Under the pieces are notes generated by a model, which made no database searches, was not told where the DNA came from, and saw nothing but the letters and a program-made list of their open reading frames with translations. The translations under genes were made by a program, and so were the position numbers. This document shows, in pieces, positions 7,696 through 19,481 of a stretch of DNA of 40,066 nt. Source of the DNA: Chrysochromulina tobinii (Eukaryota); NCBI GenBank assembly GCA_001275005.1, contig JWZX01003264.1, forward strand, positions 1 to 40,066, given 5' to 3'. The number at the start of each line of letters is the position of its first letter. Positions within the stretch are counted from its first letter, which is position 1.

Positions 7696-8322
7696 TCATA
7701 GCACGTGGCTCAAGGGCGTGCCGCTTCCATCGGCGGCTGCGGCCGCCTTGAGTCGCGCGTTGCGTTGCTTTCGCTGGCCGAGCGCGTCGAGCCCGCAGCG
7801 CACGAGCATGACCAGACTCACGAGGATGATGACGACCTTCATCATCGGCAACATCCATTGGCCTAACAAGACGTCACCAGCGTCCAGTTCCTGAGCGTTG
7901 TCCGCAGGCTGCCCCCCATGCACAGCATGGGGATTCGGCAAGCCTGCATCATATTTCAGGAGCGGAGTGGCAGCAATCGCCGATTCCCTATGCCATCTGG
8001 TCGCATTGTTCACAGGGACCACGGAGGTGGGAGGCTTGAACTCGGCCTGGAAGAGCGCGTGAAGCTGCTTGTAGCTGTACATGGAAAGGTCGAGGGTCCT
8101 CTTGCGGCCGTCGTCGTCCTCCACCACTAGATCGGGATTGTGATGACGAATCCACTCAATCTTGACCATTGAGTACTGGTCGACACCGCCCGGCTCCTTC
8201 AGAAAGCGCTTTACCTGAGGCAAGCTATTGAGCTTTCAGGCGGGGCACGATATGACAGTGCCACGCTTGGCGACAGATGACGGCAACTGCATCACGAGAA
8301 CAGCAACCCCGAATCGGCGCAT
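7696..8322 (-). CDS. SELENOM: SelM/Sep15-family selenoprotein (CxxU; UGA at 8236-8238) with signal peptide and C-terminal transmembrane helix
   Basis: MRRFGVAVLVMQLPSSVAKRGTVISCPA-UGA-KLNSLPQVKRFLKEPGGVDQYSMVKIEWIRHHNPDLV. The in-frame TGA sits at the Sec position of SelM (CGGUQLNRL) and Sep15 (CGUKLGRFPQV), with family similarity on both sides. Confidence 0.85.
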
Positions 8323-8577
8323 GTTGCTGCGCTTTCTTGTGCCCCTCGAGCAAAAACAGGGCGCAGTACGAGAGAGAGTAGCCTATTTATAGAACGGGGT
8401 GTGAAGGAGGTACGGCGCCGGAAAAGAAGTGCGGGGACATGTTTCGTCAAGCCATCATCGTACTTCCTCTTTTGGGAGTTGACGAGACGCGCGTGCGAAC
8501 CGCCACCACATGGAATACGGGTAGCGCTCATCCTCTCATCCGAGGCTCTTATTCACCCCCAACTCCCCACCCCCTCC

Positions 8578-9660
8578 ATGAGCGCCGACGACGGTACAAC
8601 CACCAGGAGTTCCTACAAGGCCCCGACTTCTTTCGATGCTCTCCTCTCGGAGCCCAAGGGGAAGACTGTGTACTTTGCCGGCGAGGCATTTATGCTTCAC
8701 GTCTTTTGGGAGACTCCTTCGCGCGAGGCTGCCACAGAACTCTTGAGAGGTCTCTCCTTGTGCGCTGCGGCGACCCACCGCAACACTCCATGCGTGCCAG
8801 TCTACTTCTTCAGATTATCCAGCTGTGACGACGACCTCTGCCCACCGCCCCCAACAACGGTGGGGAACTTTCCCGCGCTGATGGATGCCTCCCGCAAACT
8901 CTCCAGAGGCGTCCCCGCGCCCGCTGTTCACGCTGAGCTAAAGAAGAAGGGTGTTGACGTGGCGCTCCTTTCCTTGCCCACCGACGCTCCCCTTCCACCA
9001 GAACTGCTGAACCGCCAAGCGTGCATCATCGAGCTTACCGAGGTGTACCTTGACGAGCGCGCGTTTGTGGAGCACGCCGGGAGTCGCGACTACCTCGACG
9101 GGCACGCGGCCGTCATGAGTCCTGCGTTGCAGAGTATCAGGCGGCCACGGTCTCTGCAGCTAGGAACTCCGAACGCGGGATTGGTGGAGCGCATTTTGGA
9201 GCCTGTGCTGCAGGCTACTGAAGTCCCACTCGGCGGCGGGAACTGCTTCGTTTGGCGTCCCTTGCCATCCCCGTCACCGAACAATGAGGAAGAAGGCGGA
9301 GGCGCTTCTATGTTCCTCTCTCTCGACACAGAACGGCTTCCCCCCGACCGCGCATCCGCAGCTCTACCCTCGGCGTTCGTCGAATTGTGCTGTACCCTAA
9401 CAGTCTTCGAGCACCCTCTTCGCGACGGAGCAACTCGTGTCATGGCTGTGCTCTACGAGTGGCCGACTGCCGCCCTCCTTGAGGAAGTTGACCGCGCTCT
9501 GCTGCACGTCGCGCGAGGACAGGCCCATGTGCTTGACGCCGAGAGAGCGGCATCGCTCCCGCAACTCTTTGAGGCTGCTGGCCTTCATGGGCGTGTGATT
9601 CTCAACACCAACTCTGCGGGCTACGTCCTTCACTCCAAGGCGGCACACCTGACGACGTAA
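8578..9660 (+). CDS. Hypothetical protein, possible ABM-like (dimeric alpha-beta barrel) domain
   Basis: Intronless 360-aa ORF; FMLHVFWETPSREAATELLRGL...VYFFRL and IIELTEVYLDERAFVEHAGS resemble two halves of an ABM fold. Confidence 0.6.
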   Translation: MSADDGTTTRSSYKAPTSFDALLSEPKGKTVYFAGEAFMLHVFWETPSREAATELLRGLSLCAAATHRNTPCVPVYFFRLSSCDDDLCPPPPTTVGNFPALMDASRKLSRGVPAPAVHAELKKKGVDVALLSLPTDAPLPPELLNRQACIIELTEVYLDERAFVEHAGSRDYLDGHAAVMSPALQSIRRPRSLQLGTPNAGLVERILEPVLQATEVPLGGGNCFVWRPLPSPSPNNEEEGGGASMFLSLDTERLPPDRASAALPSAFVELCCTLTVFEHPLRDGATRVMAVLYEWPTAALLEEVDRALLHVARGQAHVLDAERAASLPQLFEAAGLHGRVILNTNSAGYVLHSKAAHLTT

Positions 9661-9776: not shown

Positions 9777-10221
9777 CAGCATGGGGATTCGGCAAGCCTG
9801 CATCATATTTCAGGAGCGGAGTGGCAGCAATCGCCGATTCCCTATGCCATCTGGTCGCATTGTTCACACTCAGGGACCACGGACGAGGTGGGAGGCTTGA
9901 ACTCGGCCTGGAAGAGCGCGTGAAGTTGCTTGTAGCTGTACATGGAAAGGTCGAGGGTCCTTTTGCGGCCGTCGTCGTCCTCCGGACCACTTCCACTAGA
10001 TCGGGGGGGTTGTGATGACGAATCCACTCAATCTTGACCATAGAGTACTTGTCGACACCGCCCGGCTCCTTCAGAAAGCGCTTTACCTGAGCGCTGAGGC
10101 AAGCTATTGCGTTGAGCTTTCACGGTTTCAGGCGGGGCACGATATGATAGTGGTTAGTGCCACGCTTGCCGACAGATGACGGCAGCTGCATCACGAGAAC
10201 AGCAACCTCGAATCGGCGCAT
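9777..10221 (-). pseudogene. 3'-truncated, frameshifted copy of the SelM-like gene (duplication extends through the promoter to about 10383)
   Basis: Near-identical to 7923-8322 but with many small insertions; Sec TGA retained at 10128-10130; lacks the TM-coding end and 3' UTR. Confidence 0.9.
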
Positions 10222-10476
10222 GTTGCTGCGCTTTGTTTGTGCGACTCGAGCAAAAACAGGGCAAGTATAATGTGAGAGTACTGTACCGGTAGCCTATTCA
10301 TAGAACGGGGTGTGAAGGAGGCACATGTTTCGCGGGAAAAGACAGGCGGGGTACATGTATCGGGAAAAGACATGTATCGTCACCCTTCCACATAATGGAG
10401 CTGTGAAGACAAGTAGTGGGGGGCCGTTTACGTGAAGTGTGTGTTCATACAAGTAGAAGACGAGCGAGCGATCACC

Positions 10477-12547: not shown

Positions 12548-13491
12548 TTAGCAGAAGGTGGTCGGGCGCGCCGCCTTGAAGGTCGTCCGGTACTTCTTGG
12601 CAATCTTCGCCACCCTGTGCGGCAGCGGGAAGCGGATGGACTGCGAGTGGAACTGCTTGACGTCGGCGCGCTTGCACTCCTCCGGCTTCAGCTCGGCCGT
12701 CTTGAGGATCTGGATGGCCTTCGACTTAGCGCGGCTGCGGCCTGCCATGTCCATGTACATCATGTTGATGGCAGCGGTGAGCGACATCTCGCGGATCTCC
12801 TTGTACGCGTTGTGAGTGCCCGTGCGCGAGTCATAGCGGAACCAGATGCCAAAGTTCTTGACCTTGAGCGGGCTCTTCTCATAGATCTGCGCGGCGGACG
12901 GGGCGGGGGCGCACACGCTTACGGTGAGCGCCACAAGCAAAGACAAAGGGTTGCGAGTACCGACGGCATGGCGCTGACGACCATCTGCCCGATGCGGCGG
13001 CAGCGGGCCCGATGATGGTGTCCGCACAACCTGGCACTGCCGAACGGCCTGCCATGGCGAGCTCCACGAAAGTCGCCAGAGTTCCCAACTCGTTGCGCCG
13101 CCACCACGTCCTCAGCCGCAGCATCCGCTATCGGCAGCCACGTTGCGGCGGCTGCTGTCGCACGCCGCACCCGCCGGCTGGCTGCGGCCCCATGCTGCGC
13201 GCTGGATGGAGCTCCGAGCATCTTGCTGCGGCGGCGATCGTGTTGGCAAGAGAGAGCGCGCACCTTGTTGATGGAAATGATCTGACCGTTGGCCTTCTTC
13301 ACGCGGCACAGCTTGCCCATGAAGTACCAGAAGCGGCTGCGCGCGACGACGTTGTTCCTCGCGAACAGGTTCATGCGGTACACCTTGCACATGGCCGAGT
13401 CCGCAGAGTACTTCTCATTGGGCACGAAGCGTCCCACCACCTGGTACTGCGACTGCCCAGTCGGCAGCGCACCCGAAGCCTTCTTGCCCAT
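12548..13491 (-). CDS. RPL18A: 60S ribosomal protein L18a (eL20); complement(join(12548..12886,13264..13491))
   Basis: YQVVGR, VYRMNLFARNNVVARSRFWYF, VKNFGIWFRYDSRTGTHNAYKE, FPLPHR; phase-0 GT-AG intron 12887-13263. Confidence 0.97.
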
Positions 13492-13637: not shown

Positions 13638-13817
13638 GATGACGTCTCCGTCTCCAAGAGGCCGTGCTGTGGGGAAATTGGCGGATTGATTTTAAGCGCC
13701 GAATCCATTTGAGAAAGGCACCCGAGGCCGGCGCCGATCTCCAGAGAGTAAGATCAATAGAACACATTTCACAGGCGCTGCCCTGGGCGCGACCTCGAGT
13801 TGTCCTTTCCCCTCGGG

Positions 13818-15950
13818 ATGAACAGGCCATCGCGGACGGCGACGCTCATCCTGCTCTCCGCCGCGGCGGGCTTCCGCGCGGGCCCGCGCGTGCCGCCATT
13901 CGGCCACGCCGCCGCCGCTGCACGCTCTAGCGTCGCATGCTCTATTGCTGTGCCCGTGCCGCCCGCCGATAACGATAGGACCGTCGTGGACGGCCCCAAT
14001 GGACCCATCCTCGTGACCAAGGTCAAGGGCAGTTACTACGCCGTCGACGCGACCTGCCCTCACCTCGGCCTTCCGATGAAGCGTGGCAAGGTTGCCGACG
14101 GCGCGGACGGCGTGACGCTCACGTGCAGTTTCCACAACAGTTGCTGGGCGATGAAGGATGGAAGCTGCAAGAAATGGGTGACTGGTGCGCTCGGCATCGA
14201 GAATGAGGCTGCCGCCGGCGTCATGGGCAAGCTGGGTGGCCAGAAAAGGAGCATCAAGTCTTACAAGGTGGCCGTCAACCAGGACGGCTCGCTCACGCTT
14301 GAGTCGAACTCACTGATGCTGCCTGCACAGCCGCCTGCCGCCTCCGTGATCCGTACCATGGTGCCCGATTCGCCGTCGGGCTCCGAGTTCGAGACGCTCG
14401 GCGAGGCCGACCACGGGCCGGTCGGCGTGCTGCTGCTCTCGGTGGGCGCGCCCGAGACGCCCGACGACGTCGAGGAGTACTTGTACAACGTCTTCTGCGA
14501 CCCGGAGATTCGCACCCTGCCTCCCGCCATCTCTTGGGCGTTCAAACGGCCTCTCGCGTGGCTCATCGCGCGCGAACGCGCCGAGGAGGCGCGCGAGTCG
14601 ATGCGGCTCGCGGGCGGGCGCTCGCCGCAGCTAGCGACGATCCAGGCGCAGGCGAAGGCGCTCGGGACGGCGCTCGCTGACCGAGGCGTCGATGCGCGCC
14701 CCTTCATCGCGATGCGCTACTGGAAGCCGTTCACCGAAGATGCCGTCGAGGCCATGAAGGCGGAGGGCATCCAGAAGCTGGTGATCCTGCCGCTGTACCC
14801 ACAGTTCTCCCTCTCGACGTCGGGCTCGGCGCTGCGCGTGCTCGAGCGATTGCTCTACACGGACCCGGGCTTCCCCATGAAAACGTCCGTCGTGCCCGCG
14901 TGGTACAACCGGCCACTGCATGCATGCACGTGCTCACCACGGCGCCCTCCCCCTTCCCCACAGGTCCGTCGTGCCCGCGTGGTACAACCGGCCCGGCTTC
15001 CTGCAGGCGACGGCCAAGGGCATCGCCGATACGCTTGCCTCGCTGCCCCGCGATGCGCGGGGGACGGCGCACGTGCTGTACACGGCGCAGGGCCTGCCGC
15101 GCAAGTACGTCGACGACCTTGGCGACCCATACCAGGAGCAGGTCGAGCGGTGCGTGCAGCTGGTGAGTGACGAGCTCGGCGCGATGGGCATCGCTAACAA
15201 CCGCTCTCTCGCGTACCAAGGTACGATCGTCCCACTGAGGGCCACTGAGGGCCTTGAATGGCCTCGAATGGCCTTTGAATGGCCTCTTGCTTGCCCCAAT
15301 GGTCTCTGCGTGCCCTAATGGCCACTCCTCGCATCCTTCATCAGGCGCCTTCGGGCCGCAGCCTCTGATGACCGCTGATGACCGCTGATGAGCTCTGATT
15401 GCCTCCCTCATCAGGCGCCTTCGGGCCGCAGCAGCTGCGCTGGCTCGAGCCGTCGACCGCGTCTGAAATCGAGCGGCTTGCGGCCCAGGGAGTGCGCTCC
15501 TTAGTGCTCGTGCCCATCTCCTTTGTCTTCGAGCACATGGCCACCCTCAACGTGATGGACTGCGAGTTCGCCGGCGTCGCGGCGGCGTGCGGCATCCAGT
15601 CCTTTGTGCGCGTCCCTACCCTCGGCGTGGAAGAGACGTTCATCGGGGCGCTCGCCACGGTAGTCATGGAGGCCTTGCCCGACCTGTCGCGCCCTTCCTT
15701 CCAGCAGATCAACGCGGGCACGCCCGTCGCCCTCAATATGGTCAATGAGTACACACGGCTGTACACCAAGGACCAGCTGCAGCTAGTCCCGCAGGAGCAG
15801 CCGTGGGGCTTCACGCAGGAGGCGGAGATCATCAACGGGCGCATCGCGATGACCGCGATCACGCTCGCGCTCGCGCTCTCACTCGATCCATCGCTCAAGG
15901 CCATCGTGGCCGTCTACCGAGCCGCTGCCGGTGCCGCCGGCGCCATGTAA
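13818..15950 (+). CDS. Plastid-targeted Rieske [2Fe-2S] + ferrochelatase-like + CAB/HLIP-helix fusion; join(13818..14884,14964..15220,15415..15950)
   Basis: Signal + transit peptide (LILLSAAAG-FRAG); Rieske CPH (14055-14063)...CSFH (14124-14135); HemH-like GVLLLSVGAP, MRYWKPFTEDA, LPLYPQFSLSTSGS, GDPYQEQV, WLEPST, VPISFV; C-terminal WGFTQEAEIINGRIAM. Confidence 0.85.
14885..14963 (+). other. Intron (perfect 30-nt downstream-exon copy + cassette A)
   Basis: aaac|gtccgtcgtgcccgcgtggtacaaccggcc-actgcatgcatgcacgtgctcaccacggcgccctcccccttccccacag|gtccgtcgtgcccgcgtggtacaaccggcc. Confidence 0.92.
15221..15414 (+). other. Composite intron with degenerate decamer arrays and a duplicated acceptor (15344 and 15414)
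   Basis: catcag|gcgccttcgggccgcagc occurs twice, separated by tgatgaccgc repeats and tgattgcctccctcatcag; removal gives AYQGAFGPQQLRWLEP. Confidence 0.85.
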
Positions 15951-17738: not shown

Positions 17739-18794
17739 TCACCAGTTATAATGTCGACCGATCTGATCAAGGCCACTGTAAGCATACATTCCGGTTGAGA
17801 ACCAGAAGTCGCGACGTTCACTTCCCCACGTCACGAATCCTGCTCTGCTTGCCTCCTCGAAGGAGAAGCCCGCCACCTTGCACTGGTATGGTCGATAGCC
17901 AGCAGCCTTCATCTGCTCGATCGTGAAGCCTGCCGCCTTAGCTTCCTGCGCTGTATGAGTTCCGGGTCCCAGGTGCCCTGCACTGGTGAGCTCCTCAATC
18001 GAGAAGCCAAACACGTTGCACTGGCGTGAAGTATAGCCAGCAGCCTTCATCTGCTCGATCGTGAAGCCCGCCGCCTTCGCTTCCAGCGTTGTATGAGTTT
18101 TGGGTCCCAGGTGCCCTGCACTGGTGAGCTCTTCAATCGAGAAGCCCGCCACGTTGCACTGGTACGAATCATAGCCAGCAGCCTTCATCTGCTCGATCGT
18201 GAAGCCCGCCGCCTTGGCTTCCTGCGCGCTATGAGTTTGCTTTGCTTTCATGGGATTTACATGCACCCAGCGCTGCCGCGTGGTGAGAGAGATTGGCAGA
18301 GCATTGCTACGGGTATAGCGATTGAACTCGTCGGCAGAAAGCTTGGTCAGCTGCCAGGTTGGATCATGTGCAGCAGCGCGAGCGGCAACGCTCCAATCAT
18401 TGCACACGAAAAGCAACCGGCCCAGGTGACTCAGATCCAGAAAGTAGCAAACGGCCATAAGAACGTCCAAAGTTAGATCAGTTGTACAATCCGCCGATTT
18501 TGCTCGGGCCGCAGCATCTCTAACCTCGAAGAATCTTGCTTCAGTAAGTAGGCGTCGCCGGTCGGCCTCATCTTCAATCTGTCGGCGTCGCCGCTCGGCG
18601 TGGTCGGCATCTTCACGCTCCAGAGATTCACGCCGCCGCTTCCGGCACTCAGGTGTCTCCCCAACAGACCACTGCACGCACTCTGCCTCCGCGGACGGTG
18701 CAACGCCGAGGAGGTCCAGCGGATCGGCGCTGGAGCTGGCCGTACAACAACTTGCATCCAACGTTCGGTTCGGCCAGGAGTACGGCGGCGGCAT
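17739..18794 (-). CDS. F-box protein with C-terminal 46-aa tandem repeats
   Basis: LTLDVLMAVCYFLDLSHLGRLLFVCNDWSVAA F-box; about three 138-nt repeats (THxxxEAKAAGFTIEQMKAAGY...C.V.GFSIEEL); start codon uncertain. Confidence 0.7.
   Translation of the reverse strand: MPPPYSWPNRTLDASCCTASSSADPLDLLGVAPSAEAECVQWSVGETPECRKRRRESLEREDADHAERRRRQIEDEADRRRLLTEARFFEVRDAAARAKSADCTTDLTLDVLMAVCYFLDLSHLGRLLFVCNDWSVAARAAAHDPTWQLTKLSADEFNRYTRSNALPISLTTRQRWVHVNPMKAKQTHSAQEAKAAGFTIEQMKAAGYDSYQCNVAGFSIEELTSAGHLGPKTHTTLEAKAAGFTIEQMKAAGYTSRQCNVFGFSIEELTSAGHLGPGTHTAQEAKAAGFTIEQMKAAGYRPYQCKVAGFSFEEASRAGFVTWGSERRDFWFSTGMYAYSGLDQIGRHYNW
17840..18240 (-). repeat. 138-bp coding tandem repeat (about 3 units)
   Basis: gtgccctgcactggtgagct at 17973 and 18111; ccagcagccttcatctgctcgatcgtgaagcc three times. 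Confidence 0.9.
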
Positions 18795-19481
18795 CAAAAG
18801 GTGCAAGCCCCAACCCTGGCAGTCTCGCTGCACACCAGGTCTCGCTCAATAACCATCATGTACGGATACCTCGAGGAGGAAAACGAAAGGCTTGCTTTCT
18901 TCCCGTTCCACACCGGACACGAGACATATTTTTCCTTCGTTCGTTCGTTCGTTTTATCATGAATCGAAACAGTTCTCGAATGAATTCGTGCATCGCAGCC
19001 GATTCGGCGCTACACGCCGCGCTGCCTCCGGTCCGCGAACGGACTCGCTCACTCCGCGCTGGTGCACTCTCTCCTCGTCCTCTCGATCTAGGACTAGGTT
19101 CGGAGATCCTCTGTTCATTGCCTCTGTTCCTCTCTCTCTCGCTCGAGTCGACTCTCTCCTGAAGTCTCTCCACACTCTGTCTCTCTGATAATCGGATCTC
19201 TCAGTCTGATGATCGCTCTCGCCCGCGCGGCTCCGCACATCGACCGTTACGATGCAGTCTCAGCCCGCCAGCCACGCCGCCTCTGATGACTCTCTCAATC
19301 TCTCTCAATGGACCCATGCGATTTGATTCGTGTCATTCGAGTGCCCGGTCCTACCGGGCCGCCGCCACGCTGTGCACTCGCGTCCCCGCACGCGTCCGAT
19401 GACCTCCGCGCATCTCCATCTCCATCTCTCGCTGCGCGTCCACGTGTCAGGTCCGTCCGAAGACGAGCTTCGTCAGCTCCG

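Follow-up and report, generated by a model that had tools for sequence, protein, structure and literature searches.

A conserved and expressed duplicate of the haptophyte plastid ferrochelatase without the catalytic histidine and glutamate

The stretch of DNA analysed here (the window) comprises 40,066 nucleotides of contig JWZX01003264.1 from Chrysochromulina tobinii, a GC-rich, intron-bearing eukaryotic sequence. A gene on its forward strand with three exons (13818-14884, 14964-15220 and 15415-15950) encodes a protein of 619 residues in which a presequence, a Rieske domain, a ferrochelatase fold, the linker known as region II and a chlorophyll a/b-binding (CAB) helix follow one another. Pfam recognizes the Rieske domain (PF00355), the chlorophyll a/b-binding motif (PF00504) and, over all three exons, the ferrochelatase family (PF00762), each exon scoring above the curated cut-off of 27 bits; this match and the two-domain chelatase fold place the protein in PF00762. 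Exon 1 holds the presequence, the Rieske domain, a linker and the N-terminal half of the ferrochelatase fold, whose full extent (residues 202-528, 14421-15674, from Pfam and a model of the orthologue P0005) spans both introns, and exon 3 runs through the stop codon. The presequence (13818-13952), a hydrophobic signal ending AAG-F followed by an Arg/Ala/Ser-rich stretch, is likely a bipartite plastid-targeting signal, and a similar reading of 32 orthologues finds a bipartite-looking N-terminal extension in each. Head to head with this gene, with approximately 330 nt between the start codons, lies an intron-split gene for ribosomal protein L18a (PF01775) on the reverse strand (12548-13491).

The exon structure follows from the gene model and from RNA contigs, and the spliced product is also on record as P0077. 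Four of the 14 listed RNA runs were examined, all of one type and year and so maybe from one campaign. Their contigs skip intron 1 (14885-14963, 79 nt, GT..AG) in three of the four runs and intron 2 (15221-15414, 194 nt, GT..AG) in all four, and bridge the Rieske-to-ferrochelatase junction in all four; the whole gene is spanned by no single contig. In the same runs the intergenic bin 13716-13819 has no RNA depth. The segment 15076-15570, to which an earlier note on this DNA had assigned its ferrochelatase observations, runs across intron 2. An alternative acceptor for this intron at 15344 was rejected, as it yields a frameshift and stops. Around its 3' end (15340-15433), a second copy of the acceptor and of the first bases of the exon lies 70 nt upstream; the duplication surrounds a CTGATGACCG-type repeat, which other runs likewise contain at very high copy number. 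Only the downstream acceptor keeps the frame. The first 30 nt of intron 1 are an exact copy of the start of exon 2, while its 3' part (approximately 14921-14965) is covered hundreds- to thousands-fold by unrelated contigs in other runs. Strains probably differ in whether they have intron 1, because the allelic proteins P0001 and P0131 read straight across its site, yet run on into intron 2; it would be a recent and possibly mobile intron.

Homologue searches return a group of related proteins at approximately 56-87% identity. Its named members come from Emiliania huxleyi, Tisochrysis lutea (P0206) and, more diverged, Diacronema lutheri; among named matches the clade seems to be restricted to haptophytes. 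Residues were counted in an alignment of 35 clade proteins and the window protein, excluding fragments and predictions that read into introns, and human numbering was counted from an alignment of P0005, which is 87% identical to the window protein, to human ferrochelatase. The proposal that the domain lacks both catalytic residues holds on the sequence and in this alignment. The motif FSAHGVP reads LYTAQGLP at 15076-15099, where Gln398 (CAG, 15088-15090) replaces His263, and SEHIETLEEID reads FEHMATLNVMD, where Ala484 (GCC, 15540-15542) replaces Glu343. A third altered motif, LLSVGAP for LLNLGGP (14433-14453), contains Ser208 (14439-14441) at the position of N75, and Met262 (14601-14603) takes the place of the propionate-binding Y123. 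These replacements extend to the clade: H263 is Gln in 36/36, E343 is Gly in 19, Ala in 16 and Ser in 1 of 36, N75 is Ser in 31/31 and Y123 is Met in 33 and Leu in 2 of 35. None of the best 46 matches, unfiltered, has His at the H263 site, and the codon there is CAG in 12/12 coding sequences. Since both residues are intact in 20/20 canonical haptophyte ferrochelatases and in 34/34 other aligned ferrochelatases, their loss is not a matter of chance. RNA editing back to His and Glu was rejected: no other letters appear at either codon in 4/4 RNA runs, and CAG stands in 11/11 intron-free orthologue contigs.

Beyond these two residues, the earlier note had described downstream acidic residues as lost and the porphyrin pocket as retained, and each description is true in part. 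The acidic loss applies to the window gene, in which the equivalent of E347 is Val, but not to the clade, in which E347 is Glu in 33/36, D340 is kept as Glu in 36/36 and D349 is kept in 36/36, together with H341 in 35/36. Likewise, R164, Y165, Y191, T198, Y276 and W310 are kept in 36/36 and F337 in 35/36, but Y123, S303, V305 and S339 are replaced (S303G in 36/36, V305F in 30/36, Phe or Tyr at S339 in 36/36), and the M76 position is Val in 31/31. The alignment therefore describes a pocket that is remodelled more than merely retained. In human ferrochelatase numbering the porphyrin propionates are bound by R115, Y123 and S130, according to passages of a review (PMC9133952); the clade keeps R115 in 26/29 and S130 in 26/32 and has lost Y123 in 35/35. 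Overall, the clade retains 75 of 102 near-universal positions and departs from the other 27. The protein thus has neither the invariant H263 and E343 nor the full R115/Y123/S130 set of an active ferrochelatase.

These losses have not been followed by decay. In the ferrochelatase-to-CAB part, dN/dS (Nei-Gojobori) lies below 1 in 66/66 pairs, with a median of 0.22 and a maximum of 0.59, in a comparison whose pairs are not independent, which includes two near-identical contigs and in which GC-rich third positions probably lower dS. The comparison covered the window gene and 11 intron-free contigs from 31 loci, leaving aside partial or intron-bearing loci and L010, which gave no usable frame. Between the window gene and its closest orthologue the ratio is 0.14, and of ten differences between strains in this part of the gene nine are synonymous. 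Neither of the sequence outcomes that the earlier note named as counter-evidence occurred, since the orthologues have not retained His and Glu and dN/dS does not approach 1. The gene is, in short, a conserved, expressed duplicate of the haptophyte plastid ferrochelatase without the catalytic His and Glu. Loss of catalytic residues from an expressed protein whose remainder is under purifying selection is the profile of a pseudoenzyme.

The lineage of this duplicate was examined in a tree of 34 rows (LG+G4, without a mixture model) from which 12 trait columns had been removed. Intact and pseudo copies of haptophytes group together (100/99), apart from the green, cyanobacterial and other algal enzymes. 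Pseudo copies of prymnesiophytes form a group of their own (100/100), and the tree places the origin of the pseudo clade inside the haptophyte plastid ferrochelatases. Diacronema and the protein P0337 join the pseudo copies at only 85/97, on long branches. A single duplication that predates the split of the two haptophyte classes is likely, because Diacronema differs at 12/12 of the fixed-change sites, at seven of them with the clade's own residue, and has the region II ending in common. The H263 site itself is Val or Ser in Diacronema and Met in P0337. The latter, a haptophyte-type protein of 529 residues, retains E343 and the CAB motif; as it shares only one residue with the fixed changes of the clade and keeps E343, it perhaps represents a separate, third loss of the histidine. 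Named intact copies come from E. huxleyi CCMP1516, C. tobinii (KOO25964.1) and Pavlovales, and E. huxleyi is the one strain in which both copies are named (XP_005762401, pseudo; XP_005784633, His/Glu-intact). The window protein is approximately 50% identical to the latter. Section 4.2 of PMC11914136 names KOO22639.1 as the C. tobinii ferrochelatase, a different accession from the intact copy found here.

The overall build of the protein is that of a type II plastid or cyanobacterial ferrochelatase (HemH/FC2; PF00762 and PF00504), with the same fold and the same order of core, region II and C-terminal CAB helix with its ExxNGRxAM motif. An AlphaFold model of P0005 (mean pLDDT 82.4) superposes on human ferrochelatase (1hrk_A) with Z 42.0 and an rmsd of 2.4 over 336 aligned residues. 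The CAB helix, an LHC-like membrane helix (15807-15890; PF00504, E 9.6e-9), keeps the motif residues E, N, G, R, A and M in 33/33. The region II linker (residues 529-572, 15675-15806) is the most conserved segment of the clade, with a mean pairwise identity of 0.87 against 0.73 and 0.62 in its own core and 0.67 in region II of the intact haptophyte copies. In addition, positions that are Arg or Lys in the intact copy are Glu or neutral in the pseudo clade, a contrast that sits in a gapped part of the alignment. Such conservation and acidity would be expected of a binding surface, and could equally reflect binding of a protein other than the intact enzyme. Model confidence in region II is low for both copies (pLDDT 32-38 versus 43-46 across the intact and pseudo models), so the models are silent on its role; low confidence there as a sign of folding upon a partner was rejected, the intact copy being equally low. 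In Synechocystis the CAB domain matters for dimerization and lowers turnover, and pigment binding to it was not evident in the study, as passages of PMC3563542 describe. Compared with HemH/FC2, the pseudo clade descends from the haptophyte plastid enzyme but replaces H263, E343, N75, Y123 and S303 and carries its own strongly conserved region II sequence, and the C. tobinii copy adds the Rieske domain.

This additional domain (13971-14297; Pfam E 2.4e-11) has its CxH (14055-14063) and CxxH (14124-14135) ligand motifs intact and shares 61% identity with P0061, a diatom protein that stands alone. The fusion was found only in two clusters of C. tobinii's own alleles. A Rieske domain is missing from 32/32 orthologues with at least 40 residues before the core (out of 48 examined; some of these 32 are near-duplicates), including the closest, P0005, which has its own presequence. 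By tblastn the Rieske part is present in just 4/31 loci, all C. tobinii's own, and no neighbouring Rieske gene was found in the other 27, mostly short contigs. An atlas search with the Rieske part returned generic Rieske clusters only, and allelic differences concentrate in the linker and not in the Rieske domain. From this distribution, the domain probably came from a stand-alone Rieske protein of algae by a recent in-frame fusion, and would lie outside the ancestral function of the clade. Together with P0048, P0061 and P0070 it belongs to a conserved algal family of Rieske proteins that are small (approximately 200 residues) and stand alone, and for which no described function was found.

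A second lineage of similar character emerged from a profile search. Among 138 new representatives, 120 have both catalytic residues, 14 miss one or both sites and are unchanged where covered, two are fragments of the haptophyte clade and two lack the histidine outside it, namely P0337 and P0354. The latter clusters with QKY14909.1 of Polytomella parva (P0354/P0464), annotated as a ferrochelatase. This alga is a colourless green alga (PMC5024002), and its odd copy resembles the haptophyte one in the His-to-Gln replacement, the loss of E343 and the presence of intact paralogues, here two. It differs in its independent green-algal origin, in a colourless host and in being known from one species, to which the parallel is limited; the CAB motif is absent from it and from its intact paralogues. 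The odd copy branches with these intact copies (100/99), and an AU test rejects one clade of Polytomella and haptophyte pseudo copies (p-AU ~1e-80). A wider green-algal family was likewise rejected, as 118/118 other listed matches to the Polytomella protein keep His and Glu. The Polytomella copy is changed at 10/12 of the sites fixed in haptophytes and at 15/71 of the sites the clade keeps (Fisher p 6e-5), and four of its substitutions (L76V, G78S, H263Q and S303G) are identical to those of the clade. At the level of sequence, this shows a parallel release of the same sites in the two lineages. Because colourless Polytomella keeps an independent His-to-Gln copy, a pseudo copy can arise without chlorophyll.

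What might such a protein do? The earlier note's conclusion that it is no active chelatase is an inference with good support: all H263 variants studied are inactive according to the review (PMC9133952), haptophytes have an intact paralogue, and the losses are fixed under purifying selection. On these grounds metal insertion by the pseudo copy is unlikely. With a probability of roughly 0.45, it is a non-catalytic partner or regulator of the true plastid ferrochelatase, which of the three functions first suggested (carrier, regulatory partner of true HemH and Rieske-dependent enzyme) fits best. The protein would be located in the plastid membrane, would insert no metal and would pair with the intact enzyme via the CAB helix and region II, and so would affect the split of protoporphyrin IX between haem and chlorophyll. 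It may do so by tuning the activity of its partner, or its remodelled pocket may sense a tetrapyrrole. Paralogy, co-occurrence and conservation are what point to the link with the intact enzyme. The pocket itself may have a selected job, because a single residue, Gln, is fixed in 36/36 and H341 and E340 are kept. Since the Polytomella copies have no CAB motif, the same partner mechanism would need another interface there. In order of plausibility, this reading is followed by a free carrier, a new pigment enzyme, a residual chelatase, a Rieske-dependent enzyme and decay.

As a stand-alone tetrapyrrole carrier or buffer, the fold would close on protoporphyrin IX, haem or Mg-porphyrin and hold it or hand it on, a less likely possibility. 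Gln398 would then possibly act as a metal ligand; glutamine is a ligand of the chlorophyll Mg in antenna proteins. The closed two-domain fold of the P0005 model, the largely kept R115 and S130 and the retained R164, Y165, Y191, T198, Y276, W310 and F337 are consistent with ligand binding, as is the human E343K variant, which is inactive and co-purifies with trapped protoporphyrin in the account of the review (PMC9133952). Against this, Y123, a propionate binder of nearly all ferrochelatases, is gone throughout, bulky Phe occupies V305 and S339, and Gln is not universal, given the Val, Ser and Met of Diacronema and P0337. Furthermore, a carrier would leave the best-conserved part, region II, unexplained.

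The remodelled pocket might instead act on a chlorophyll c-type substrate as a new haptophyte pigment enzyme, which we regard as improbable. Twelve near-universal positions are fixed to new residues, the acidic set and H341 near E343 are kept, and the clade is apparently confined to haptophytes among named matches. However, the changes run to Ser, Val, Ala, Met, Gln, Gly and Phe and bring no catalytic or metal-binding residue, a colourless alga has altered ten of the same 12 sites, and H341 is lost in Diacronema, in Polytomella and in one of the 36 clade members. In addition, chlorophyll c synthase is encoded by a gene of its own, which has members in haptophytes, according to passages of PMC12960971.

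A slow or specialized chelatase, or a reverse chelatase, working without His263 and Glu343 is more improbable still. The proximal-face residues R164, Y165 and Y191 are kept, and variants like LmCpfC H182A are reportedly left with residual activity. The structure 9f0g, titled 'LmCpfC H182A variant in complex with iron coproporphyrin III', leaves a small doubt about chelatase inactivity by analogy; a literature search on Listeria ferrochelatase variants found nothing. On the other side, the N75 and M76 positions are changed too, E. huxleyi and Polytomella parva also possess intact paralogues, and the review (PMC9133952) describes all H263 variants studied as inactive.

A fused [2Fe-2S] domain could supply electrons to a Rieske-dependent pigment-modifying enzyme, as the earlier note had also envisaged, and the intact ligands, the open frame, the RNA contigs bridging both domains and the concentration of allelic differences in the linker are compatible with a working domain. 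This reading is unsupported and very improbable, as the domain is missing from the orthologues, including one with its own presequence, is confined to C. tobinii's own loci and has stand-alone proteins as its close relatives. Rieske oxygenases of pigment metabolism (CAO/PAO type) join a Rieske domain to a mononuclear-iron catalytic domain, whereas here the domain after the Rieske part is PF00762 and Pfam lists no oxygenase domain. Decay towards a pseudogene, suggested only by the catalytic losses and the extra E347V of the window gene, is already refuted by the selection data, provided that the orthologues are translated, and spliced transcripts and frames open throughout the clade speak against it as well.

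This kind of protein is already known. A ferrochelatase-like protein of Caenorhabditis elegans ('pseudoferrochelatase') is likewise without the equivalent of H263 and enzymatically non-functional, and most nematodes take up external haem, according to passages of the review (PMC9133952). By comparison with this description, the haptophyte copy arose by a separate duplication, belongs to a photosynthetic plastid pathway that also has an intact paralogue, and carries a CAB helix. A non-enzymatic regulator of the branch between haem and bacteriochlorophyll that binds ferrochelatase, PufQ, has been described in Rhodobacter sphaeroides (PMC5725709). Its role is what the pseudo copy would resemble as a partner of the intact enzyme. 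In contrast to the pseudo copy, PufQ is a separate protein from the puf operon and no ferrochelatase paralogue. Its size also sets it apart, and it is not known to be homologous to ferrochelatase.

A literature search, with most subscription journals outside its scope, found no description of the haptophyte or Polytomella pseudo copies, nor a paper that treats the Polytomella copy as an inactive enzyme. Two papers on the haem pathway treat haptophyte ferrochelatase and note no inactive copy, in the main-text passages of PMC11914136, whose supplements may bear on the point, and in the portions of PMC5115734 covered, which include 4/5 of its supplements. Nothing is added by passages of PMC10578119, PMC13564367, PMC11528492 and bioRxiv 10.64898/2026.02.27.708454.

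It has long been asked how plastids partition protoporphyrin IX between haem and chlorophyll, and there is no settled view of what the extension formed by region II and CAB does in ferrochelatase. An extension kept on a copy without catalytic residues separates the regulatory parts from catalysis and makes them testable, Tisochrysis lutea with its recorded pseudo copy (P0206) being one suitable species. The parallel substitutions in Polytomella mark sites constrained by catalysis alone. Public databases label the pseudo copies as ferrochelatase, and pathway counts for haptophytes and Polytomella are thus likely inflated. A broader proposal is that at least twice in algae the same substitutions have turned a ferrochelatase duplicate into a subunit dedicated to a non-catalytic role, and that the haptophyte one pairs with the true enzyme and reads a Mg-porphyrin/haem signal in its Gln-lined pocket. 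We consider it unlikely in this full form; if true, a major group of phytoplankton would have a so far undescribed switch where its haem and chlorophyll pathways part, newly wired here to a [2Fe-2S] redox domain.

Two further features of the window deserve mention. A reverse-strand open reading frame of 364 residues (17739-18833) encodes decapeptide repeats (PF25296) whose copy arrangement varies among C. tobinii loci. A stretch of approximately 550 nt is duplicated at 85% identity at 7923-8446 and approximately 9777-10362, as seen via loci L015-L021, and the two copies flank an open reading frame at 8401-9660.
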